Source: an uncultured bacterium (GTDB lineage Bacteria > Hydrogenedentota > Hydrogenedentia > Hydrogenedentales > JAEUWI01). From it: a stretch of 27,630 nt of DNA. Below are positions 1,693 to 26,606 of the stretch, one piece after another. Position numbers and translations under genes: made by a program. The notes beneath the pieces were generated by a model. The model worked only from the letters and a program-made list of their open reading frames with translations, searched no databases and was not told where the DNA came from. Location: contig CAXBPH010000075.1 of NCBI GenBank assembly GCA_963977445.1, positions 1-27,630 of the forward strand, in the 5' to 3' direction. Every line of letters starts with the position of its first letter. The first letter of the stretch is position 1.

Positions 1693-3698
1693 ACGCCCCG
1701 AGTTGGTGCGACGATCCTCGAATCCGTGCGCTATTTTTTGCCCGTGGCGTATGCCTCTGCGGACTCCTGATAGCCTCGATGGGACTTCCTGCTGGTGCCG
1801 GCGAGTCCCAAACGCTCCAAGTGGATGAAGTGCATCTTCGTCTGGGGGATACCGAAGAATGGCGCGATTTTTCTGCCGTCCCCGCGAAGCCGTCCCTTTC
1901 GCTCTCCTTCGAGTCCTCTCGGAACGCGGAAGCGTGGACCCTGGCGGTGCAACAGTGGGAGGTGAAGGAGAAGTGGGTACTTGGACTCAATGGGAAGAAG
2001 TTGGGCCAACTGCGGCAGGATGAGAATAATCTGATTCAGTATGTTGAAGTGCCCGCCGGAATCCTTATGGAAGGTGCCAACACGCTGACCTTTGAGCCAG
2101 ACCCTGCCGCACGGGGAAAGGTCGATGATATTGGTATCGGCCAGGTAGTGCTTCATCAGGAGCCGCCACCGCGCTGGCTGGGGGAGGGGGCCATGGCCGT
2201 CACGGTCCAGGAAGATGGACATCCCGTACCCTGTCTAATCACTATCGTCGATGCCCATAGTGCGCTGGCGGCATTGGGCACGACCACGGGTTCCGGGCTG
2301 GCCGTGCGACCGGGGGTGGTCTACGCGGCGACCGGGGAGGCCCGGATAAGCCTGCCCGCAGGAGACTACACCGTTTACGCGGGGCGGGGCTTCGAATACT
2401 CGCTGGATCGCGTTACGGTCTCGGTAGGTGCCGGAAAAATGGCCAGTGTGGACCTCTCGATTCAGCGGGAGGTACCCACCGAGGGCTATGTGGCCTGTGA
2501 TCCCCACATCCATACCGTGACCCACTCCGGCCATGGAGACTGCACCGTGGAAGAGCGCATGGTGACCCTCGCGGGCGAGGGGATCGAGTTGCCCATCGCG
2601 ACGGACCACAACGTTCATATCGACTACGAAGCGACGGCGCGTGCTATGGGGGTGCGGCCTTATTTTACACCCGTCATCGGGAATGAAGTGACCACTTCCC
2701 TGGGCCATTTCAACGTTTTTCCCGTGAAGGCAGATGCCCCGTTGCCTGATGCCAACGCCACGTCGTGGGATGATCTTTTCGCGTCCATCAAAGGCACTCC
2801 CAATGTGCGCGCTATCATTCTGAACCATGCGCGGGACCTCCACGCGGGTATGCGCCCCTTTGGCCCGGAGCACTACGACGACGTAACGGGGGCCAACACC
2901 GACGGATGGGACCTGCAGGCCAATGCCATGGAGATTATCAACTCCGGGGCAACCCAGTCGGACCTCCTGGAACTGACCCGGGACTGGATGACCCAGCTCA
3001 ACCATGGCGTCTACATGACGCCGGTGGGCAGTAGCGATTCTCACGATGTGAATCGCTTTATCGTCGGACAGGGGCGTACCTACGTTCGTTGCGCCGATGA
3101 TGAACCCGGCAACATCAATATCGACGAAGCGGTGAAGGCCTTTGTTGCGGGCAACGTGCTGGTCAGCTATGGGCTCGTCGTGGAAATGTCGGTGAACGAG
3201 CGCTACCGTTCCGGTGAGCTCGCGGCGATGGAGGCGGGTGCCACTTCGGTGGAAGTGGCCCTTCGGGTATTGGGCCCCCATTGGGTGGAGGCGTCTGAGA
3301 TCCAGTTGTACGCCAATGGGGCGCGGATACGTGAATTGAAGATTTCACGGGAGCAGGCATCGCCCGTGGGTGTTATCTGGACCGGACGCTGGACCATTGA
3401 CGTTCCGAAGCACGATGTCCACCTCGTGGCGATCGCGACAGGCCCTGGAATCGATGCCCCCTATTGGAAGATGGCACGGCCCTACCAGCCGACCTCACCG
3501 GAGTATTCTTCCCAGGTATTCGGGTGTAGCGGGGCCGTCTGGGTGGATGGAGATGGCGACGGAAAGCGCAGCAGTGCTCGGGACTATGCAGAGCGCCTGG
3601 TGAAAACAGGTAGTATCGATTTGGAAAACCTGGAGCAGCTACGTTCAGCGTACGATGCGGCCGTGGCCATACAAGCCCGTTATTTGCTCTCCCGTTGA
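1689..3698 (+). CDS. Secreted CehA/McbA-family (PHP-domain) metallohydrolase
   Basis: Metal-ligand motifs DPHIHT, TDHN, GNEVT..GHFN, NHAR and GSSDSH. An upstream 'Y.VYAGRGFEY' carboxypeptidase-regulatory-like segment and an N-terminal hydrophobic signal are present. The start overlaps the upstream stop (ATGA 1689-1692). Confidence 0.85.
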   Translation: MNAPSWCDDPRIRALFFARGVCLCGLLIASMGLPAGAGESQTLQVDEVHLRLGDTEEWRDFSAVPAKPSLSLSFESSRNAEAWTLAVQQWEVKEKWVLGLNGKKLGQLRQDENNLIQYVEVPAGILMEGANTLTFEPDPAARGKVDDIGIGQVVLHQEPPPRWLGEGAMAVTVQEDGHPVPCLITIVDAHSALAALGTTTGSGLAVRPGVVYAATGEARISLPAGDYTVYAGRGFEYSLDRVTVSVGAGKMASVDLSIQREVPTEGYVACDPHIHTVTHSGHGDCTVEERMVTLAGEGIELPIATDHNVHIDYEATARAMGVRPYFTPVIGNEVTTSLGHFNVFPVKADAPLPDANATSWDDLFASIKGTPNVRAIILNHARDLHAGMRPFGPEHYDDVTGANTDGWDLQANAMEIINSGATQSDLLELTRDWMTQLNHGVYMTPVGSSDSHDVNRFIVGQGRTYVRCADDEPGNINIDEAVKAFVAGNVLVSYGLVVEMSVNERYRSGELAAMEAGATSVEVALRVLGPHWVEASEIQLYANGARIRELKISREQASPVGVIWTGRWTIDVPKHDVHLVAIATGPGIDAPYWKMARPYQPTSPEYSSQVFGCSGAVWVDGDGDGKRSSARDYAERLVKTGSIDLENLEQLRSAYDAAVAIQARYLLSR

Positions 3699-5709: not shown

Positions 5710-5830
5710 GATTGCCGTTTGCCCCTCGGATTGATGATTAATGTCAGTGCAGACAGTGTAACAAGAGCTCGACTCTATAAGCTATGACGAGTGCCGACGC
5801 GAGACCGGCCCTCGGGGCGTTTTTTGCCGT

Positions 5831-6370
5831 TCGAGCGCATTCGCGAAGCAAAGAAGACGTCTGGGTGGCACGGACAAGTCTGCAAGACTTGCCCGTGGAG
5901 TCAGCACAGATGACGACGTGGTCTTAGTCAGATTTGCTACCCACACGGGCAAGCCCTCCGGGGCTTGTCCGTGCCACCCCGTCGTATTTCTTTACGAGTA
6001 GATTCACGCATGACAGGACCTATTCATGACGCGGGCCAAGGTAAGTTTAGTAACTCTTCGCGGTTCGCCCTGTTTGAGCCCAAGCAGTCGCCTGGGTGGC
6101 ACGGACAAGTCTGCAAGACTTGCCCGTGGAGTCAGCACAGATGACGACGTGGTCTTAGTCAGCTTTGGTAATTACACGGACAAGCCCTCTGGGGCTTGTC
6201 CGTGCCACCCCATCGTGTTTCTTTACACGTAGATTCACACGGGACAGGACGTATTCATATCTCTTCCAAGGTAAGCGTGGTTTCTCCACGAGGTCGAGAG
6301 CCCGTTTGAAGCGAAACAGTCGTCTGGGTGGCACGGACAAGTCTGCAAGACGTGCCCGTGGAGTCAACAC
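5831..6370. repeat. Tandem array of REP doublets (REPIN/BIME-like), ~2.3 units with 231-232-bp period
   Basis: GGGTGGCACGGACAAGTCTGCAAGAC starts at 5863, 6094 and 6326. Its inverted partner CTTGTCCGTGCCACCC ends at 5979 and 6210. Inner spacers are nearly identical, and linkers between units are recognisably homologous. Confidence 0.9.
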
Positions 6371-6468: not shown

Positions 6469-7530
6469 ATGAACCGACGCGATTTTCTCGGCAGCACCGC
6501 AGGCCTGCTGGCGGCCACCCAACTCCAGGCCGTTGGCCAGACGTCTCCCAAAGAAAAAATACCTGCCGCCGTGTTGGGCCTCGGCCATGCCCATGGTTTC
6601 GGTATTGTCAGTGTGCTCAGGTCCTCCCCCGATTTTGAACTGGTGGGGGTGTGTGAACCCGACGCTGCCCTGCGAAAAACCTATGAAAGTCACAAATCCG
6701 TCGCGGATGTCACCTGGTTGAGCCAGGAGGAGGTCCTTTCCAATCCCGCTATCAAGATGGTGGCGGTGGAAAGCGATGTGCCCCGTTTGCTCGAACTGGG
6801 CCAGTCCGTCGTCGCAGCGGGAAAACATCTCCACCTCGACAAACCGGCCGGGACGGATCTGCCGAAGTTTCGCACCCTGCTGGACACGGCGAAACAGAAC
6901 GACGTCTATGTCCAGATGGGCTATATGTATCGTTACAACCCGGGCTTCGACTTTATCCGAAAAATGAATGCCGAAGGGGCGCTGGGGGATGTCTTCAGTA
7001 TTCATGGCACCATGTGCACCGATCTCTCGTTGGAAAATCGGAAGAAGATTGGCTTCCACAAGGGCGGTGCCATGCTGGAGCTGGGGTGTCACCTTATCGA
7101 TATGATTGTGCTGTTACTGGGTGAGCCCGACAAGGTTACGAGCTTCCTCCGACACGACAACGCCATCGACGACGGCCTCAGCGACAACACCCTCGCGGTC
7201 CTGGAGTATGACAAGGCCCTGGTGACCGTCGACATTTCCGTGAAGGAACCCAATTCCGGGGTGGGTCGTCGCTTTAAGATTACGGGGACGAACGGTGCCA
7301 TAACGCTATTGCCTCTGGAGCCACCGGCGGCCCAGCTTAGCCTTCGGGAGGCCCACGGCGACCATCCCAAGGGGATTTCCGACGTGGCCTTTCCCAATTT
7401 GCCCCGCCACATTGCCGACATGGTCGATCTCGCCGCAGCCATTCGGGGCGAATCAGCGTTTGTCTATTCCTATGACCACGACTACGCAGTGCAGCGGACC
7501 ATCCTCCGTGCCTGTGGGGAGCAGGTGTAG
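6469..7530 (+). CDS. Gfo/Idh/MocA family oxidoreductase with Tat signal
   Basis: MNRRDFL twin-arginine motif, Rossmann start 'AVLGLGHAHG', 'AAGKHLHLDKP', 'QMGYMYRYNP', 'GGAMLELGCHLID'. GGAG RBS. Confidence 0.9.
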   Translation: MNRRDFLGSTAGLLAATQLQAVGQTSPKEKIPAAVLGLGHAHGFGIVSVLRSSPDFELVGVCEPDAALRKTYESHKSVADVTWLSQEEVLSNPAIKMVAVESDVPRLLELGQSVVAAGKHLHLDKPAGTDLPKFRTLLDTAKQNDVYVQMGYMYRYNPGFDFIRKMNAEGALGDVFSIHGTMCTDLSLENRKKIGFHKGGAMLELGCHLIDMIVLLLGEPDKVTSFLRHDNAIDDGLSDNTLAVLEYDKALVTVDISVKEPNSGVGRRFKITGTNGAITLLPLEPPAAQLSLREAHGDHPKGISDVAFPNLPRHIADMVDLAAAIRGESAFVYSYDHDYAVQRTILRACGEQV

Positions 7531-7777
7531 TCAGGGGCCTGTAATAGGCCCTACCAGTCATGGCAATGACATCGGGTAGGACTTTTTCGGTTGCGACCTA
7601 TCCCCGTGCCTTGGCCTGGGCCCTTTGTCGCCAAAACAAGTGTGTGCCCTTGGAGAAATCAGCCCCGAGGGCGTATTTTTTGTAGAGGCTCTAATCGCTT
7701 GAGGTGGTCATCTTACAGGAAGGAAAACAGGAGCTTGCGCTATCGTCTCCCGACTTCTACAATAGCAGGGAGATTGA

Positions 7778-10078
7778 TTGGCAAGTATAAACGTGTTAAG
7801 GACTCAGCCCATTACGCCCGACAAGACCAACACCAGCGCAACCAACACAGATACTTGGCGTGCGCGTTCCGGACTTTCCTCCCGGGCGCTGTCCCATTCT
7901 TTTCGGACGACGGCCCTGCTCTTTCGCAGACAGCTTTGGATTTGGCCCCTGATTGCGGTTCCTCTGTTTGCAACCATGGGTTTTTGGGTGCGCGCCTATG
8001 TGGAACAACCCCTTGAAGAAAATCTGCAAAACGGTTTGACGACCATCCTCGACTCAGATGTAGCGGCGCTGCGACTCTGGTTGGGCTATCAGCAGGAGCG
8101 GGTGGAGTTGTTTGCCGCTGATGTGGATATTCGGGAGACCACTGACGCCCTTGCAATACTTCCCGCAGGTACGCCCCAGGACGTTGCGGCCCTATTGAGT
8201 GCACCCCAGCAGGCCACCCTGCGCCAACGGTATGAAGAGCACCATGATGTGGAGCTCTACAGTGGCTATATTCTTTTTGACATGGATGGCCGGGTCCTGG
8301 CTGCCGATACCATTGAACTCGTAGGCAAGGCACGCCCCATGGAGGATTCCCCCTGGCTTTCGCGCGCCATTGCGGGAGAGCCCGTCGTATCCATCCCGTA
8401 CAAAAGCCGTGTCCTGCTGCGTGACCGTCACGGACGGGAGCGCACGGGGGTACCCACAATATTGGTACTTGCCCCAGTGATGGATAGTGCCGGAACGCAG
8501 ATAGGTGTCCTGGGCATACGGGTGCGCCCGGAAGGGGGCTTCACGTCCATCCTCCGCATTGCCGAGGTGGGTGAGTCGGGGGAAACCTACGCCATCGACC
8601 GAAACGGTCTTATGCTCTCTCAGAGTCGCTTTGACGATGGTCTGCGGGCTATCGGCTTGCTCGCAGACGATGGAGAGAGTGCCTCGATCCTTACTCTGGC
8701 CGTTCGTGACCCCGGGGTAAATATGATCGAGGGAGAACGCCCGGATACGCGCCGATCGGAGCAGCCACTGACGTTTATGGCCCAGTCGCTTACTAAGGGC
8801 GAGTCCGGCGTCGACGTGGAAGGGTATCGGGACTATCGCGGTGTGCCCGTGGTTGGGGCCTGGGCCTGGCTGGAGGAGTTTCACTTCGGTGTGGCTACAG
8901 AAATGGATGTGGACCAGGCCTATCTACCGCTTTACTACCTGCGGACGGTTTTCTGGGGACTCTATGCCTTGCTAGGTGTCGCCGCGCTGGCCATATTTGT
9001 ATTTACGGTCATCGTGTCCCGACTAAACCGTGAAGCACGACATGCCGCACTGAAAGAGCGAAAGATGGGGAAGTATGCGCTGGAGGATGAGTTGGGTAAG
9101 GGGGGGATGGGCGTAGTTTATCGTGCACGGCATGAGCTGCTTCGGCGACCAACAGCGGTTAAACTACTGGATATCGACCGAACGACACCAGAAAGCATAG
9201 CCCGTTTTGAGCGCGAAGTAAAACTCACCAGTCAGCTCTATCACCCGAACACCATCACCGTCTTCGACTATGGGCACACCCCAGAAGGGGTGTTTTACTA
9301 CGCCATGGAGCTCCTCGAAGGGCTGAACCTCGACGAGCTGGTGATTCAGAACGGTGCCTTGCCCGAAGGGCGGGTCATCCACATCCTCAGCCAGGTTTGC
9401 AGTTCGCTGGCTGAAGCCCACAGCATAGGATTGATTCATCGGGACATTAAGCCCGCCAACATCATGGTTACCGCACGGGCGGGCATGTATGATTTTGTGA
9501 AGGTGTTGGACTTTGGCGTCGTGAAGGCGATGGATGGGGAGATACAGTCCAATCTGACGGCCGCCAATTCGTGGGTGGGAACGCCCTACTACATGTCCCC
9601 GGAGGCCATACAGAATCCGGACGACGTAGACGCGCGAAGCGACATCTATGCGTTGGGCGCAGTCGGCTATTACCTGCTGACGGGAACGATGGTATTTGGG
9701 GGCAATAACCCGGCAGAGATAATGCGAAATCACACCACCAAATCACCCGAACCCATTTCCGAGCGTCTTAGAAAGGCGGTATCACCCGAACTGGAAGCGG
9801 TGATTATGCAGTGTCTGTCGAAAGTGCCCGGAAAGCGGCCACAGAATACCGAAATTATCGCCCAGCGGCTTTCCGCGTGCACTCTTATTGAAGCGTGGGG
9901 CCCGGATAGCGCCCGCGCCTGGTGGCAGGAACGATTTCCCGACCAACATGGAACCTTTACCAAATCCCCATCTATAGAGGCCACCGACATTCGGACCACG
10001 ACCGAAATCAACAAGGTTGAATCAATCGATCAGGTTACCGTGGTGATGCCGACAGGGGATGAAGAGAAAGGGGCCTAG
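7778..10078 (+). CDS. Receptor-type Hanks Ser/Thr protein kinase with extracytoplasmic Cache-like sensor domain
   Basis: Two TM helices bracket a Cache-like region ('GESGETYAIDRNGLMLSQSRF', 'YRDYRGVPVVGAW'). Kinase motifs are LGKGGMGVVY, AVK, HRDIKPAN, DFG, GTPYYMSPE and DIYALG. The TTG start follows GGGAG; the exact start is uncertain. Confidence 0.92.
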   Translation: MASINVLRTQPITPDKTNTSATNTDTWRARSGLSSRALSHSFRTTALLFRRQLWIWPLIAVPLFATMGFWVRAYVEQPLEENLQNGLTTILDSDVAALRLWLGYQQERVELFAADVDIRETTDALAILPAGTPQDVAALLSAPQQATLRQRYEEHHDVELYSGYILFDMDGRVLAADTIELVGKARPMEDSPWLSRAIAGEPVVSIPYKSRVLLRDRHGRERTGVPTILVLAPVMDSAGTQIGVLGIRVRPEGGFTSILRIAEVGESGETYAIDRNGLMLSQSRFDDGLRAIGLLADDGESASILTLAVRDPGVNMIEGERPDTRRSEQPLTFMAQSLTKGESGVDVEGYRDYRGVPVVGAWAWLEEFHFGVATEMDVDQAYLPLYYLRTVFWGLYALLGVAALAIFVFTVIVSRLNREARHAALKERKMGKYALEDELGKGGMGVVYRARHELLRRPTAVKLLDIDRTTPESIARFEREVKLTSQLYHPNTITVFDYGHTPEGVFYYAMELLEGLNLDELVIQNGALPEGRVIHILSQVCSSLAEAHSIGLIHRDIKPANIMVTARAGMYDFVKVLDFGVVKAMDGEIQSNLTAANSWVGTPYYMSPEAIQNPDDVDARSDIYALGAVGYYLLTGTMVFGGNNPAEIMRNHTTKSPEPISERLRKAVSPELEAVIMQCLSKVPGKRPQNTEIIAQRLSACTLIEAWGPDSARAWWQERFPDQHGTFTKSPSIEATDIRTTTEINKVESIDQVTVVMPTGDEEKGA

Positions 10079-10221
10079 GGATCAAAATGGGCGCTCAGAT
10101 GGGGGGGGCCTGTGGTAGGATTAATTGGCGGTTGAATTTTTTGAGGAAAATGTCGTCTGTATTCGTAAATAGGGAGCAGTATGCCCTTCGCAACGTGGAA
10201 ATCTGCGATTAGGAGGAAGTC

Positions 10222-11505
10222 ATGCAAAAAACATTCTATCTCGTTATTGCCTTGGCACTTACGTCGGGATTGGCATCAGCCGATTCCATCCGGGTTGGGG
10301 ACAAACTCTATCGAAATGTCTATATTGGGGTAAGTAGCGAATATTACTACGTTCACCATCCAGAATCGGGTGAAATGGAGCGGATAAGTCGCAGGCGCTC
10401 CAACATTTCTAATGTCCAGATCGACGATAACGAAGATGCCCGAAGTGCCCTGCTCGCGCGATACGAAGCCGCGAAAGCGAAGCCACAGGAACCTGCCAGG
10501 AAGGCACCGGTTTCCCAATCTGAAGTGGCCGGTGAGACGAAATCCTTTGACGGTGATTTGCTCAAGTATCGAATCTATATGCGCGACCTGGCGGAATTTG
10601 AGACCCAACTTGCCCACTGGAAGGACCTCTCCCCGGAAACGCAGAAACGTATTCAGGGGGGGCTCTACGAAACAATGGAACAGCGTGCTGCCCGTCGCTC
10701 TGCAGCCCACGAACAGGCCGTGACGAGTATTAGCACGTTGGAGCAAGAGAAAGTTACGATACAGCAGCACGTGGAGGCGGCAGCCATCGAGCGGGAGCGC
10801 GCGGTGTGGCAAGCCCGTGCCGAGAGTACGGAAAGGAATTATCTGGAGGCCTACAAAAACTCCTGGGTTCCGGGTCAACCTCAACACTACTATTACCGCG
10901 AGGGTGGTAGACGTCCGCAAGTCGGGGTATATTACGTCTATGGGAGAGACACGGAAATATACAATTCGGCATTGGAAGAGCGCGCAAGAGAAAATAATCG
11001 GATCGCTGAGGCGAACGACCGCTATGAAGCTCAAACAGAGAACTACGGCAAGGTACTGAATTCCGTCGACTCAGCAATCACTCGCCATGCGCGGGAAGCC
11101 CAGACTACCGTTCAAAAGGCTCACGATGAGATGCGACGATACAAGGCCTGGCAGGCGCGTGTGGCCGCGCTCGATGCCGCAGAGGAGGATGAATATCAGC
11201 CGGTATTGAAACCTACGGTCGTGGAACACTGGACCGGCGCGGCGGATCGTCGCACACCGGATTTTACTATCGACCAAGGGCTATGGCGGCTGGACTGCCT
11301 GCGGGCCGAAGATGGGAATCTGGGAGACTTCGCCGTGACCGTCTTCAGTGCAGAAACGGATGCGCCCTTCACCCGGGTTTCTGGTGTGGACTATCTCGGT
11401 ATGCGCTCGAGGATTTTTGACGAGCCGGGCACCTACTATCTGGTGATCTCGCAGAGCGGTATACCCGTGTCCTATGATGTAACGGTGAGCACCTTGTCTC
11501 AGTAA
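10222..11505 (+). CDS. Secreted hypothetical protein with long coiled-coil and C-terminal beta-rich domain
   Basis: AGGAGG RBS, Sec signal (..SGLASA), E/A/R/Q-rich helical middle and a beta-strand-patterned C-terminus ('PGTYYLVIS...YDVTVS'). Confidence 0.8.
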   Translation: MQKTFYLVIALALTSGLASADSIRVGDKLYRNVYIGVSSEYYYVHHPESGEMERISRRRSNISNVQIDDNEDARSALLARYEAAKAKPQEPARKAPVSQSEVAGETKSFDGDLLKYRIYMRDLAEFETQLAHWKDLSPETQKRIQGGLYETMEQRAARRSAAHEQAVTSISTLEQEKVTIQQHVEAAAIERERAVWQARAESTERNYLEAYKNSWVPGQPQHYYYREGGRRPQVGVYYVYGRDTEIYNSALEERARENNRIAEANDRYEAQTENYGKVLNSVDSAITRHAREAQTTVQKAHDEMRRYKAWQARVAALDAAEEDEYQPVLKPTVVEHWTGAADRRTPDFTIDQGLWRLDCLRAEDGNLGDFAVTVFSAETDAPFTRVSGVDYLGMRSRIFDEPGTYYLVISQSGIPVSYDVTVSTLSQ

Positions 11506-22473: not shown

Positions 22474-24294
22474 TCAGCCACCGGAATACACCGCGTCTAC
22501 CAGCCCGCGCTGGACGTCGACACCATTTACCCGTTTGAGTGGTATGAGTTGCCCCTTGGGATTAAATTCCTCCCAGGCGGCCATTTCTTCACGATGCCCT
22601 ATTCGGCGAAGCCAATTCCAGGAGTCTACCCGGTTCTGGACCGCATCCATATCCCAATAGGCAAAACTATTTACCCCGTTTTTGTAGGCCTCGGTTACAG
22701 ATTGGGGGCTCATAGCCAGCTCACCGCGATATCCGGTATAGAGCACGAATTCACAATCATGTTCCTTGCCCAGGGCGATGTATTCCGGGTCGATGCCTTC
22801 CTGGCATATGACGCTGTCCAGCCACCCTTCCTTGATCCAGTGGGCCACATCGAGCCCTTCGGCCATAGGGGTGCCGCCAAGCCAGACGCCCCGTTCACTG
22901 GGCCACACCCAGACGGAAAGATTGAGTGGGCGGCCGCGCTCTTGGGCGATTTCTTCGGTGAGCCCATGGACCTTTGCCAGATAACGATTCATGAGCTCCG
23001 CGCGCACGGCGTATAGTCGTGGGTCGTCCGGGGCCACTTCGCGGGCATCCGTATTGTATCGGGATTGAAACAGCTCCAGTACGGGGGCCTCATACTGGAG
23101 GGCATGGGGGCCGCGAACGAAGCATAGATTGATGCCATCCGCGTCTACCTGACCGAGTGCTTCTCGCATGAGGGCGATGGTGAAGTCCTGGGTTTCGTCA
23201 AAGGCATAACTGGCCTTGTCCAACACCGTGCCGTCGGCAAGGACCTGACGGCAGTGGGGGTATTGCTTAAAAAAGCCTTCACCACTGAGATCGAGAAAGC
23301 CCAGGTCGCCCAGGATACCCAGTCGAAACATGAGGTCAAATTCCATTCCCATTTGATGAGCGTGTTCCGCTGCTATTTTTTGAGGGACCGCTCCAGCCTC
23401 CGCAAAATCTCGCAGGGCACGGTGGGCCTGTTGTTCTCCCCGTATGTAGTCGTTGGGGCCCCAGTTTTCTGCGTGGGCGGAGCGACTGTGCTCGCCCAGA
23501 AACAGGGCACCGGGTACCTGGGTGGGGAAATTGGTCCGATCGCCATAGTTGGCCGCCCACAACACCTTGGCCACATCGGAGTGACGATAGGGCTCTATAA
23601 GATCCAACACATCCTCGGGGTTGGTGTACTCACCGAAGTGGAAGTAACTCACCCCGTCGATGGTGGAAACGAGATTGCGGGTCTTCGTCTGTGTGCGATC
23701 GGCAACCACCCGCGCGACCGATTCACTGTCCAGAGGCTCCAGTTTCACATAGGCGATGGCACAACCCCGCCCAAGAATCCCATTCATCTTGGCAAAGACC
23801 AGATCCCGGTCCGTCAGGTCGGCGACGTCATAGAAGAGTTCCCGCAGATAGGTTCCTTTCTGGGAATCGTTGCTGGCGGGGAGATCAATCCGCCTGTAAG
23901 CCCCATCACCACTTAATTTGACGCGGAGCGACGTGAGGCCATCGTAGGCGAATGTTGGCTGCCAGATGCCCAGCCAGATGCGGTGCCAGCCTGGGGCGTC
24001 TACGGGAAGCGTGACTGCCGGGGCGTCGGTGATGGAGGCGGCATATAATAGGGTTCCTTGAATCTCCTCCGATTCATAGGGAATGAGACGCCACGTGCCC
24101 TGGGCGGCGGGGCCCTTGGTCAGCGCCGAAGCGGGGAGGCAGGTGGAGAAATCAGTGAGGTAGCGGGGGGCCATGTCGGGGGCTGCGTATCCCCAACCGC
24201 AGCTAAGGACGCCGAGGAGAAGCAGTGTTGCGAGGGGGATGGAACGCAAGGGGCTGCTGATTCGGTGGCAGTCCGCCAGATCAAGATACTTCAT
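22474..24294 (-). CDS. Secreted hypothetical protein, probable glycoside hydrolase-like TIM barrel (GHL10-like)
   Basis: Signal-like N-terminus and a beta-rich N-domain, then 'AEHAHQMGMEF..MFR', 'SYAFDETQDF', 'DADGINLCFVRGP' and 'GLDVAHWIKEGWLD', which resemble GHL10-like barrels. Start placed at 24294; the ORF is open to 24366. Confidence 0.6.
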   Translation of the reverse strand: MKYLDLADCHRISSPLRSIPLATLLLLGVLSCGWGYAAPDMAPRYLTDFSTCLPASALTKGPAAQGTWRLIPYESEEIQGTLLYAASITDAPAVTLPVDAPGWHRIWLGIWQPTFAYDGLTSLRVKLSGDGAYRRIDLPASNDSQKGTYLRELFYDVADLTDRDLVFAKMNGILGRGCAIAYVKLEPLDSESVARVVADRTQTKTRNLVSTIDGVSYFHFGEYTNPEDVLDLIEPYRHSDVAKVLWAANYGDRTNFPTQVPGALFLGEHSRSAHAENWGPNDYIRGEQQAHRALRDFAEAGAVPQKIAAEHAHQMGMEFDLMFRLGILGDLGFLDLSGEGFFKQYPHCRQVLADGTVLDKASYAFDETQDFTIALMREALGQVDADGINLCFVRGPHALQYEAPVLELFQSRYNTDAREVAPDDPRLYAVRAELMNRYLAKVHGLTEEIAQERGRPLNLSVWVWPSERGVWLGGTPMAEGLDVAHWIKEGWLDSVICQEGIDPEYIALGKEHDCEFVLYTGYRGELAMSPQSVTEAYKNGVNSFAYWDMDAVQNRVDSWNWLRRIGHREEMAAWEEFNPKGQLIPLKRVNGVDVQRGLVDAVYSGG

Positions 24295-24495
24295 AGCTAT
24301 AAACCTTTCGAGAGGAAAGCACCACGTGAACGGGTGGGGTGGGTGTGCTGGAATGGGACAGTTCAAGGAACAATATCAGCATTCCCGGCATTGGTCAACT
24401 TCACAAAGAAGCACCGAAGAATGATGATTTGTTATGATGGCGATTCAAACGATTGCAGCGTGGGCGACACAAGGCCGTAGCGACGAGGACAAGCA

Positions 24496-24744
24496 TTGCT
24501 AACCATAGGTATTAAAGAATTCCTGGTCATCGCGGGGATCGTCGCATTTATGATTTGGATTCGCATGTTTCGGGAGTCTATGGAAAAAACGACCTCGACC
24601 TTCATGCTGAAACTAAAAGGGCCCAAAAGCGGCGGGGGCGGCTTTGGCTGGCGGGGGCTGTTGTTGGCGTTTGTCGTGGGAATCGCCGCTTGCGCAGGAC
24701 TTATCCTCTTAATCCTGCGTCTCTGGCAGTTCTATAGCAACTAG
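24496..24744 (+). CDS. Small two-TM membrane protein, hypothetical
   Basis: GAGGA RBS before TTG; 82 aa with two hydrophobic helices separated by a basic/Gly-rich linker. Confidence 0.6.
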   Translation: MLTIGIKEFLVIAGIVAFMIWIRMFRESMEKTTSTFMLKLKGPKSGGGGFGWRGLLLAFVVGIAACAGLILLILRLWQFYSN

Positions 24745-24850
24745 CCACCATTTTGTAGAGTTATTTCCAAAATGGAACGTAAAACTTACCTTTCGGTAGT
24801 TTTGTGCTTGGACGCAATATTGTCGATTGCCGCCAGATTGACTTACCGAT

Positions 24851-24885
24851 CGGCAAAGGTTTGTCACGGCGGCAAACTATTGACA
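24851..24885. promoter_or_regulatory. Putative enhancer (UAS) for a sigma54 activator: two pseudo-palindromic boxes
   Basis: CGGCAAAGGTTTGTCA (24851-24866) and CGGCAAACTATTGACA (24870-24885) are 12/16 identical with 19-bp spacing, about 115-150 nt upstream of the predicted sigma54 start site. Confidence 0.5.
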
Positions 24886-24971
24886 CGCTCGCTGCACAAC
24901 ATTTTTACGCTCCGATCTCGTAAAACCTTTAGCTCTAACTGTTTGTGAGTGATATCACCCATTGCTCAGTT

Positions 24972-24988
24972 TTGGCCTCCTTTTTGCT
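24972..24988 (+). promoter_or_regulatory. Sigma54 (-24/-12) promoter
   Basis: TTGGCCTCCTTTTTGCT has GG (24974-75), exactly 10 nt, then GC (24986-87), matching TTGGC-N-TTGCW. Predicted +1 is near 24999. Confidence 0.7.
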
Positions 24989-24998
24989 CTATATGTTT

Positions 24999-25143
24999 AC
25001 ATGGGTAAGCGAAAGCAGCCCGCAATGTCAGGCTAAACATTTAATTATGTTGACGCTGCCACCAAGCCCGGGTTACGGTTGAGCATCCTGTCGATGCAAG
25101 GTCGGTAACCAACATTGTGGGTCGCTTTCTTTACCCCTTTTTT
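24999..25143 (+). ncRNA. Candidate structured small RNA (~145 nt), family not recognised
   Basis: 5' arm 25003-25028 pairs with 3' arm 25112-25136 (24 pairs including 3 G-U, 1 bulge, 1 mismatch). An internal hairpin spans 25071-25110 and a U6 tract lies at 25138-25143. The fold begins right after the sigma54 box. Confidence 0.65.
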
Positions 25144-25230
25144 GTGCCTGTACTCAATCGCCAACGCGTTCATACCCACCCCGTTGTGAGTATTGTTCCC
25201 GATGGTGTAAAGAGTTTATATAGAAAATAC

Positions 25231-25259
25231 TTGTCTTCTTAGATAGAAGTGCTTATACT
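25231..25259 (+). promoter_or_regulatory. Sigma70-type promoter for pilC/gspF
   Basis: TTGTCT (25231-36), 17 nt, TATACT (25254-59), preceded by an AT-rich UP-like tract. Confidence 0.6.
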
Positions 25260-25382
25260 CTTTATAAAACAAGTTGCGTCCAGCCTGCGCTGGGCGTGAA
25301 GTGTATCGACGTAGGTGCAGCGGGAATTGAAACCCCTAGTCTGGGTGTCGACGCTGCCGGGCCAACGAGGAGACTGTCGCTG

Positions 25383-26606
25383 ATGCCGACGTATGCCTAT
25401 ACAGCGCGCGCGCAAAATGGTACAAAGAAGCAGGGGACATTAACGGCAGACTCGCGCCAGGCCGCCACGCAGATGCTCCAGCAAAAGGGCCTGATTGCGG
25501 ACAAACTCTCTGAAAAGAGCGCCGGTTTCAGTTTCGGGGGTACGGCTGGTCCCAAGCTTAATAAGCGCGTCAAGACGTCCGAACTACTCGTGTTTACCCG
25601 CCAGCTCTCGACCATCGTAAGTGCCGGTCTGCCCCTCCTTCAGGGCTTGGATATTCTCGCCGATCAGACGGACGACCCCAATTTCGGTGCCGTTGTCGAC
25701 GCTATCGCCCAAGAAGTGGAGTCGGGCGAGACGTTCTCCGATGCACTGCGTAAATTCCCCAAGGCCTTTCCCGATCTCTATGTAAGTATGGTTCGTTCCG
25801 GTGAGGCCAGTGGTGATCTGGATGGCGTTTTGCTCCAGCTCGCTGATTATCTGGAAGCTTCGGAAGAACTGAAACGCCGCATTAAATCGGCCATGACTTA
25901 TCCGGTCGTCGCTTTCGGCATGATTATCCTCATCGCTGGCGGACTGATTGTGTTCGTCGTGCCCCAGTTTGCTGAAATTTTTGGCAGTTTCGGACGAGAA
26001 TTACCTCTGCCGACCCAGATTCTGATTCATATCAGTAACTTCCTGCGTTCCTGGTTTGCCATTCCGGCAATGGCCGCGGCAGGTGCGTTAATTTTCTTCG
26101 GTGTACGCGCGTATGGCGCGACCGAGAGCGGCCGGTACAACCTGGATAAAATGCGACTTCGCATGCCCATTTTCGGGTCACTGCTTCGTAAGGTGGCCAT
26201 CAGTCGTTTCACCCGTACCCTCAGCACACTGACGCGCAGTGGTGTGGCCATCCTTCAGGCTCTCGAAATTACCGAACGTACTGCAGGCAACGAAGTGTTC
26301 GCCAAAGCGGTTCGTGAAGCGGCCGACAGTGTCCGCAACGGTGATACCCTGGCCGACCCCCTCATGCGTAGCGAAGTCTTTCCCGCGATGGTTACACGTA
26401 TGATTGGCGTTGGCGAGAAGACGGGTGCCTTGGAAATTATGTTGGCCAAAATTGCCGATTTCTACGATGCCGAGGTGAAAGCCATGGTAGACAGCCTGAC
26501 CAGCCTTATCGAGCCCATTCTTATCGGCATGATGGGTGTGGTCGTGGGCGGTATCGTAATCGCCCTCTTCATGCCCATCCTTCAGCTTTCCTCGCTGGTC
26601 AGCTAG
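25383..26606 (+). CDS. pilC: Type IV pilus / T2SS inner-membrane platform protein (PilC/GspF family)
   Basis: MPTYAYTA start after GAGGAG. Motifs FTRQLSTIVSAGLPLLQGL, YVSMVRSGEASG.LD.VL, IKSAMTYP, RFTRTLSTL..SGV, MIGVGEKTGALE.ML.KIADFY and LIEP..ALFMPI. Confidence 0.93.
   Translation: MPTYAYTARAQNGTKKQGTLTADSRQAATQMLQQKGLIADKLSEKSAGFSFGGTAGPKLNKRVKTSELLVFTRQLSTIVSAGLPLLQGLDILADQTDDPNFGAVVDAIAQEVESGETFSDALRKFPKAFPDLYVSMVRSGEASGDLDGVLLQLADYLEASEELKRRIKSAMTYPVVAFGMIILIAGGLIVFVVPQFAEIFGSFGRELPLPTQILIHISNFLRSWFAIPAMAAAGALIFFGVRAYGATESGRYNLDKMRLRMPIFGSLLRKVAISRFTRTLSTLTRSGVAILQALEITERTAGNEVFAKAVREAADSVRNGDTLADPLMRSEVFPAMVTRMIGVGEKTGALEIMLAKIADFYDAEVKAMVDSLTSLIEPILIGMMGVVVGGIVIALFMPILQLSSLVS

Follow-up and report, generated by a model that had tools for sequence, protein, structure and literature searches.

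Several bacterial small RNAs are known to be produced from promoters that depend on sigma-54. The Qrr RNAs of Vibrio, acting downstream of LuxO, and the Pxr RNA of Myxococcus are outputs of two-component systems that run through sigma-54 and an activator of the NtrC family; the Qrr RNAs have four stem-loops and no helix that joins both ends. In Salmonella, Y-like RNAs belong to a sigma-54/RtcR operon. The available portion of PMC9879122 names only the RNA repair operon under RtcR control. GlmY and GlmZ of Enterobacteriaceae have sigma-54 promoters that are activated by the response-regulator enhancer-binding protein GlrR at upstream TGTCN10GACA sites, with help from IHF (PMC3045617, in the part available to us). 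The accessible part of PMC8657755 reports that CrcZ and CrcY of Pseudomonas are driven by sigma-54 through CbrB and that, in Xanthomonas oryzae, RpoN2/PilRX regulates pilA and pilC.

Here we analyze a stretch of DNA of 27,630 nucleotides from an uncultured bacterium (the window), in which a structured RNA gene with a sigma-54-type promoter adjoins pilC. By kind, this RNA family groups with the small RNAs driven by sigma-54 and an enhancer-binding protein (EBP), and it is a member of none that has been named. Like GlmY and GlmZ, as the part of PMC3045617 available to us describes them, the window RNA would be a discrete structured RNA of similar size with a sigma-54-type promoter and TGTC...GACA half-sites upstream. 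Unlike them, with three N10 sites in that same part, it has one conserved dyad with a 14-nt gap; it matches neither the GlmY nor the GlmZ model of Rfam, and it differs in phylum, fold, and neighboring genes. In CrcZ/CrcY, Qrr, and Pxr, short invariant single-stranded motifs do the work, as we propose for the window RNA, but the latter has no sequence or covariance-model similarity to any of them, and CrcZ, with its many A-rich motifs, is much longer. A long helix between the 5' and 3' ends that encloses an internal domain and precedes a U-rich tail recalls Y RNA/YrlA and 6S RNA; unlike these, the window RNA has no match to Y_RNA, YrlA, or 6S in Rfam, and its interior is a three-way junction rather than a 6S-type central bubble. 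No TROVE/Rsr or RtcB domain was found among the 16 window open reading frames (ORFs) scanned. As in sigma-54/PilR control of pili, a sigma-54-type promoter and a candidate upstream activator site lie beside a pilus platform gene; in contrast to that control, the promoter here would drive a short noncoding RNA that ends before pilC, and pilC has a sigma-70-type promoter of its own.

A predicted structured RNA gene adjoins pilC

The relatives of the PilC protein place the window in Candidatus Hydrogenedentota, since almost all of them, at 64 to 93% identity, come from assemblies of that phylum; ten gammaproteobacterial loci also matched, at 37% identity. Through these relatives we fetched 80 loci (given L numbers below), which with the window make 81 sources. 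The gene order in the window is a DUF1731 epimerase, a 630-aa protein, an 82-aa ORF, the RNA, pilC, and an AhpC/cytochrome c protein (coordinates of the features under study are in Table 1). The 630-aa protein (22474-24366, minus strand) has no Pfam match and, among the 80 loci, a relative only in L002. The 82-aa hydrophobic ORF (24496-24744, plus strand), just upstream of the enhancer block, has no Pfam match either; it is conserved in L002 (67%), its N-terminal half is found in L003, L064, and L065, and it is absent from L024.

Table 1. Coordinates of features at the RNA-pilC locus of the window
Feature	Position	Strand	Basis or detail
Candidate enhancer (UAS) block	24852..24886	+	Conserved in 5-sequence alignment
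Sigma-54-type promoter core TGGCCTCCTTTTTGC	24973..24987	+	-24 GG 24974-24975, -12 GC 24986-24987
Structured RNA gene	24999..25143	+	Fold; covariance-model matches in 5 other loci; no Rfam match
P1 terminal helix	25003-25028 (5' arm) with 25112-25136 (3' arm)	+	Fold, covariation
P2 hairpin AACAU-loop-AUGUU	25036..25051 (25036-25040 with 25047-25051)	+	Fold
Unpaired C/A-rich linker	25052..25070	+	Contains CCACCAAGCCC; invariant core UGCCACCAAGCC at 25057-25068
P3 long hairpin	25071..25110	+	Tip GCAUC-CUGUC-GAUGC; apical loop CUGUC 25088-25092
U6 tract, putative transcript end	25138..25143	+	T5-T8 here in 6/6 RNA loci
pilC sigma-70-type promoter TTGTCT-17-TATACT	25231..25259	+	Nearly invariant in five close sequences
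pilC/gspF-family platform protein gene	25383..26606	+	Pfam T2SSF, two stretches, E 2.6e-67

The RNA gene is about 140 to 145 nt long and adjoins pilC on its upstream side; its predicted 5' end is placed from the promoter (±3 nt) and its 3' end from the U-tract. The plus strand of 24999-25143 folds at -56 kcal/mol, with a helix that pairs both ends. This terminal helix, P1, comprises 24 bp, as 7+6+11 bp, interrupted by a C bulge at 25010 and a single A·C mismatch (25017/25123), and a single base separates its 3' arm from the U6 tract. The fold contains, at the same positions, every structural element that had been read from these letters in the original prediction, and the comparison with shuffled sequence proposed there gave z-scores from -3.66 (153 nt, 200 dinucleotide shuffles, one of which folded equally well) to -4.79 (the 145 nt alone against 100 shuffles). 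The minus strand folds more weakly, at -52.2 kcal/mol (z -2.77). We also considered by eye whether CAGG (25029-25032) could form a pseudoknot with CCUG in the loop of P3, and set the idea aside since L064, L065, and L024 do not preserve the pairing.

The original prediction did not recognize the RNA as a tRNA, SRP, 6S, tmRNA, or known riboswitch, and Rfam 15 (4227 models) gave no match at gathering thresholds anywhere in the window. With permissive filters over 24750-25400, the only match was to MIR2670, a model of a plant microRNA; it scored 11.8 bits where the cut-off is 117, with an E value of 9.6, and we take it as chance. ARAGORN called no tRNA or tmRNA gene in 24500-25500.

Compensatory changes preserve the predicted helices in related genomes

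Of the 80 fetched loci, 5 carry this RNA, in each case immediately upstream of pilC and in the same orientation. Four of these copies, in L002, L003, L064, and L065, are close (147 to 163 bits, found by BLAST and then by covariance model), and together with the window they form what we call the five close sequences; the sixth sequence, in L024, is diverged, scoring 22 bits with model R1, but both the core TGCCACCAAGCC and the CCCCUGUCGGGG tip of the hairpin are unchanged in it. Model R1, made from the first hits, found the five strong copies and, weakly, L024, all remaining matches being reverse-strand echoes. Model R2, which includes L024, returned the same six, two echoes, and one 18-bit match in L056 (E 0.087) that we regard as chance. 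An nhmmer profile of the core also recovered the same six, at E 2e-10 or better, followed by an Alkalimonas locus at E 0.04. The RNA is present in 6 of the 81 sources, L001 having an upstream stretch too short to judge. In the search of 848,623 bases, both strands included, each of these loci had a single copy, and every copy was at the same syntenic place next to pilC. It is missing from some loci whose PilC is closer to that of the window than is the PilC of L024; in L005-L008, for example, pilC directly follows the epimerase gene.

All six RNAs are predicted to fold into the same three-way junction, with z-scores from -4.4 to -5.3. In a model-made alignment of the five close sequences (240 cells), 90.8% of cells pair, against 34 to 52% when partners are slid by one to three columns; six pairs change on both sides, against none to two in the slid controls; and the observed covariation score was reached by 4 of 500 shuffles. 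Because the inner P1 of L064 and L065 is out of register in this alignment, we realigned the helices of all six sequences by hand, taking coordinates from each sequence's own fold and anchoring them on the invariant flanks. Of 228 cells in 40 pairs, 219 (96%) are canonical, compared with 35 to 44% in slid controls. The 96% is biased toward pairing in that the L024 helices were placed from its own minimum-energy fold. The P1a and P2 of L024 (12 cells) were left out as unalignable. Both sides change in 19 of the 40 pairs (slid controls, 1 to 5) and, without L024, in only 4 of 40. The covariation comes from six sequences in about three lineages and therefore amounts to few events.

Within P1, both-sided changes affect one of seven pairs in P1a, four of six in P1b, and seven of eleven in P1c, as where CAAUGU/ACAUUG is replaced by CAGUGC/GCACUG. 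In L024 the base of P3 is GGCCGG/CCGGCC instead of GGUUAC/GUAACC, and the tip of P3 also changes on both sides, with CAUC/GAUG against CCCC/GGGG. P2 is nearly invariant in the five close sequences, and L024 has another hairpin at the same place. Neither the UGCCACCAAGCC core of the linker nor the CUGUC loop differs among the six RNAs, in which the predicted unpaired probability is 0.8 to 1.0 for CACCAA and 0.9 to 1.0 for the loop, with whole-RNA means of 0.31 to 0.37. Compensatory changes keep the predicted helices across homologues. The search upstream of pilC orthologues, with its test for covariation, which had been suggested as one of the checks, yielded five other loci in which the helices covary, and the proposed plus-strand orientation agrees with the hand alignment, where 20 cells are G·U and only 1 is A·C. 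As judged from these sequence comparisons, a real structured RNA element lies on the plus strand and is conserved in five other genomes.

If there were no RNA gene here and the fold were a by-product of a palindrome in the DNA or of a mobile element of the miniature inverted-repeat type, some of the features seen would fit, namely 25-nt terminal inverted repeats, a length of about 140 bp, and a minus strand that also folds. We consider this explanation extremely improbable. In the 848,623 bases searched, the element occurs once per locus at one syntenic place, its changes are compensatory and favor G·U over A·C, and only one strand shows a conserved promoter and U-tract; BLAST of the 145 nt against plasmids and phages gave no match, and no flanking duplication was noticed.

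A sigma-54-type promoter and an upstream dyad precede the RNA

The bare pattern TGGC-N7-TTGC is not significant in itself, with 2 matches in the window against 1.46 expected by chance; what lends it weight is that the homologues keep it. None of the five close sequences departs from TGGC and TTGC, whereas the 7-nt spacer and the flanks vary, and the promoter of L024 reads CGGCACGGAAGGTGC (CGGCACG-N4-GTGC). GG and GC elements at exact spacing (consensus TGGCAC-N5-TTGC) are present in the window and all five homologues. In all six, the C of the -12 element lies 12 to 15 nt before the first base of P1, so that a transcript would begin just before the helix; the original prediction that the 5' end of the RNA coincides with the +1 position agrees with this spacing.

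Between the upstream ORF and the promoter, the alignment of the five close sequences contains only one strongly conserved block, laid out as GTTTGTCA-NN-GCGGCAAAC-NN-TTGACA. It holds a dyad, TGTCA (24862-24866)-N14-TGACA (24881-24885), whose center lies about 125 bp upstream of the putative transcription start. A related motif, TTG[TA]CA[CG][GC]GCG, is found 507 to 526 nt upstream of pilC in 6/6 RNA loci, and L024 has TGTC/GACA repeats in a different arrangement upstream. This layout is that of an enhancer-dependent sigma-54 promoter, with the dyad as the predicted site of protein binding, and the RNA is probably dependent on sigma-54 and an EBP.

Neither the window nor the 6 kb around the RNA in any of the six loci contains an EBP gene or rpoN. 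Scanning all loci for GAFTGA and Walker A motifs revealed one EBP, in L058, a locus without the RNA; it lies next to pilC and combines REC, Sigma54_activat (E 1.2e-65), and HTH_8 domains. By this sequence evidence, EBPs exist in the phylum. In L058, genes for an NtrC-type response regulator and a hybrid histidine kinase (7346-8866 and 8902-10602, both on the minus strand) converge on pilC, whose promoter there is of the sigma-70 type only. The enhancer-like motif TTGTCACGGCGGC (window 24861-24873) recurs at L010 5921, L011 5921, and L012 4104, where it forms the -35 box and spacer of the sigma-70-type promoter of pilC in genomes without the RNA.

Sigma-54-like promoters recur upstream of pilC across the phylum

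We searched the 400 nt upstream of pilC for sigma-54-like promoters, requiring at least 9 of 11 consensus positions with GG and GC exact. On the pilC strand, 27 of 64 Hydrogenedentota loci (from among L001-L075) have such a promoter; the opposite strand has one in 4 of 64, and shuffles give 1.96. Some of them, in L011-L013 and L053, overlap the conserved terminal part of the epimerase coding sequence and probably arise there by coincidence. In L048, L052, L054, and L056 the promoter is just 80 to 150 nt from the ATG of pilC, and pilC itself may be sigma-54 dependent in these four.

Other predicted RNAs occupy comparable places. In L009 (about 5744-5890), L068 (about 3360-3490), and L004 (about 5710-5850), a long helix closes an interior of 70 to 90 nt between the upstream gene and the sigma-70 promoter of pilC, and those of L009 and L068 come immediately after a sigma-54-like promoter. 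By our models, these three are not detectably homologous to the window RNA, despite the similar closing helix. L030, L035, L038, and L040 have a conserved sigma-54-like sequence, TGGCACATAGGCTGC, on the opposite strand about 200 to 220 nt upstream of pilC, which in L030, L035, and L038 stands back to back with TGGTACACCGTTTGCT on the plus strand. In another clade, that of L036, L037, L041, L059, and L049, a sigma-54-like promoter is conserved some 300 nt ahead of pilC; after it come conserved blocks and two extended -10 boxes (TGGTATACT-like), an arrangement that suggests a multi-promoter pilC leader.

The RNA is better read as a stand-alone transcript than as a pilC leader

The original prediction offered two readings, a stand-alone regulatory RNA or an attenuating leader, and it is the former that fits better. 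We prefer it because conservation ends at the U-tract, a sigma-70-type promoter for pilC follows, and L024 has an additional hairpin with its own U6. The sequence from the U-tract to the pilC promoter is not conserved; that promoter begins about 90 nt beyond the U-tract in the window, with equivalents in L024 and L064. The additional hairpin (L024 2065-2128, -42 kcal/mol) directly follows the RNA and precedes the pilC promoter. A terminator scan did not call P1 plus U6, whose "loop" exceeds the limit of the scan. The inverted repeat TAAAGAGTTTA / TATACTCTTTA (25208-25218 and 25254-25264) flanks the pilC sigma-70-type promoter, its right arm (TATACTCTTTA) overlapping the -10 box, in a region that hardly varies among the five genomes; the repeat may be an operator.

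If the RNA were instead a cis-acting leader, the sigma-54 transcript would be the 5' leader of pilC, P1 and U6 would make up a regulated terminator, and read-through would add sigma-54-dependent expression of pilC to that from the sigma-70 promoter. Several observations speak for this arrangement: the RNA occupies a fixed place directly upstream of pilC, on the same strand, in 6/6 loci; sigma-54-like promoters are in excess upstream of pilC in the 64 loci searched; in L048, L052, L054, and L056 they stand 80 to 150 nt from the pilC ATG, with no other promoter seen; and sigma-54/PilR control of pilC is reported for X. oryzae in the available part of PMC8657755. Against it, the 24-bp P1 forms unaided and no alternative antiterminator fold is evident, the nonconserved stretch separates the U-tract from a conserved promoter that belongs to pilC itself, and a second strong hairpin with U6 stands in the way in L024. 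Neither a transcription unit shared with pilC nor a choice between terminator and antiterminator, by which riboswitches and cis leaders are recognized, is apparent from these sequences. We therefore hold the leader reading to be unlikely, while allowing that the RNA may have evolved from a sigma-54 pilC leader and that some transcripts may read through into pilC. Conserved adjacency suggests a link between the RNA and pilC, and its fixed place, given that pilC has its own sigma-70-type promoter, points to a shared regulatory theme rather than a shared transcript.

The best explanation overall, to which we assign a probability of about 0.6, is a stand-alone small RNA driven by sigma-54 and an EBP, whose invariant unpaired stretches act in trans. 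Under this model, an NtrC/PilR-type EBP would bind the dyad about 125 bp upstream and, once bound, would switch on sigma-54 RNA polymerase at TGGC-N7-TTGC. Transcription would start near position 24999 and stop at the U6 after the 3' arm of P1, releasing an RNA of about 140 nt. The 24-bp end-joining helix, the short hairpin, and the long hairpin would then fold into a three-way junction that exposes two stretches as the working surface, UGCCACCAAGCC at the junction and CUGUC at the apical loop, with the covarying helices serving as scaffold and end protection. Most probably the RNA would act in trans by pairing with G/U-rich sites in mRNAs, protein binding being the alternative.

The invariant linker and loop are the proposed functional surface

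Invariant unpaired sequence on a covarying scaffold is the usual signature of a functional RNA surface, and we propose that the UGCCACCAAGCC linker and the CUGUC loop form such a surface in the modeled fold. Target prediction for the linker on the pilC leader, as envisaged in the original prediction, did no better than shuffled controls: 17 to 78% of shuffles scored as well, and the predicted sites are not conserved. Duplex prediction between the full-length RNA and the pilC leader was likewise no better than shuffles and uninformative, and a search of the six sequences (roughly 95 kb) for 7-mer complements of the core found nothing conserved near starts.

The RNA core at 25047-25060 resembles the pilC leader at 25345-25357 on the same strand (TGTTGACGCTGCC / TGTCGACGCTGCC), CTGTCG occurring in both. 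This similarity (TGTYGACGCTGCC) has a P value of 0.023 in the window and 0.007 in L003 and is not significant in the other four; for us it is no more than a lead toward models in which the RNA is a mimic or decoy. In the decoy model, the RNA would work as GlmY or CrcZ does: its invariant linker and loop would titrate a protein, which might bind the pilC leader as well, instead of pairing with mRNAs. Strict invariance of two exposed stretches on a covarying scaffold would suit a protein-binding surface, as would the hairpin loop at L024 2065-2128, which holds a second copy of the core motif, CUGCCACCA, together with a GUAAC that resembles the P2 loop. Sigma-54-driven decoys are also known, with CrcZ/CrcY sequestering Hfq-Crc (PMC8657755, in its accessible part). 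Yet the similarity to the pilC leader fails in 4 of 6 genomes, the motif occurs once or twice per RNA where known sponges carry many, and no candidate protein was found, all of which makes a decoy a doubtful proposition.

A more speculative extension, which we think improbable, draws on the fact that the RNA and the pilC initiation region share GACGCUGCC and CUGUCG on the same strand. A two-component system of the PilS/PilR kind would have the RNA as its dedicated output, and the RNA, as a mimic of the translation-initiation region of pilC, would titrate a regulator of the platform protein. On a broader view, structured RNAs driven by sigma-54 would form a class in Hydrogenedentota that diverges fast and has its origin in the pilC leader. 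The idea of such a class comes from the 27/64 loci with sigma-54-like promoters and from L009 and L068, where these promoters are followed by unrelated RNAs with a long closing helix.

The conserved core might also be read as part of a small protein gene, given that an ATG at 25047 opens MLTLPPSPGYG across it and that the MLTLPPSPGY ORF is open in the five close sequences. The ORF, however, varies from 11 to 23 codons with differing C termini, has no purine-rich ribosome-binding site upstream, and starts within the P2 hairpin; the sole ATG ORF of L024 reads the invariant core in another frame, and the core is invariant at all three codon positions. With neither length nor frame conserved and no ribosome-binding site, we rejected this ORF, and a coding function is very improbable. 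The trans-acting small RNA remains our preferred reading.

Implications for Hydrogenedentota

To our knowledge, Hydrogenedentota has no cultured, genetically tractable member. Our literature searches pairing Hydrogenedentota with sigma-54 or noncoding RNA found nothing relevant. Small RNAs driven by sigma-54 are well known elsewhere, and the present RNA opens no long-standing question. The original prediction spoke of a candidate for an undescribed system; what the comparisons point to is a new family, but one of a known kind. A conserved structured RNA gene with a sigma-54-type promoter is, on this sequence evidence, new as a family and ordinary as a kind, and the window RNA is a candidate new RNA family for curation. 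For Hydrogenedentota, the combination of a covariation-supported RNA, a sigma-54-type promoter, and a candidate enhancer site amounts to a concrete regulatory module, and it hints that expression of the pilus platform in this phylum is tied to sigma-54 signaling.
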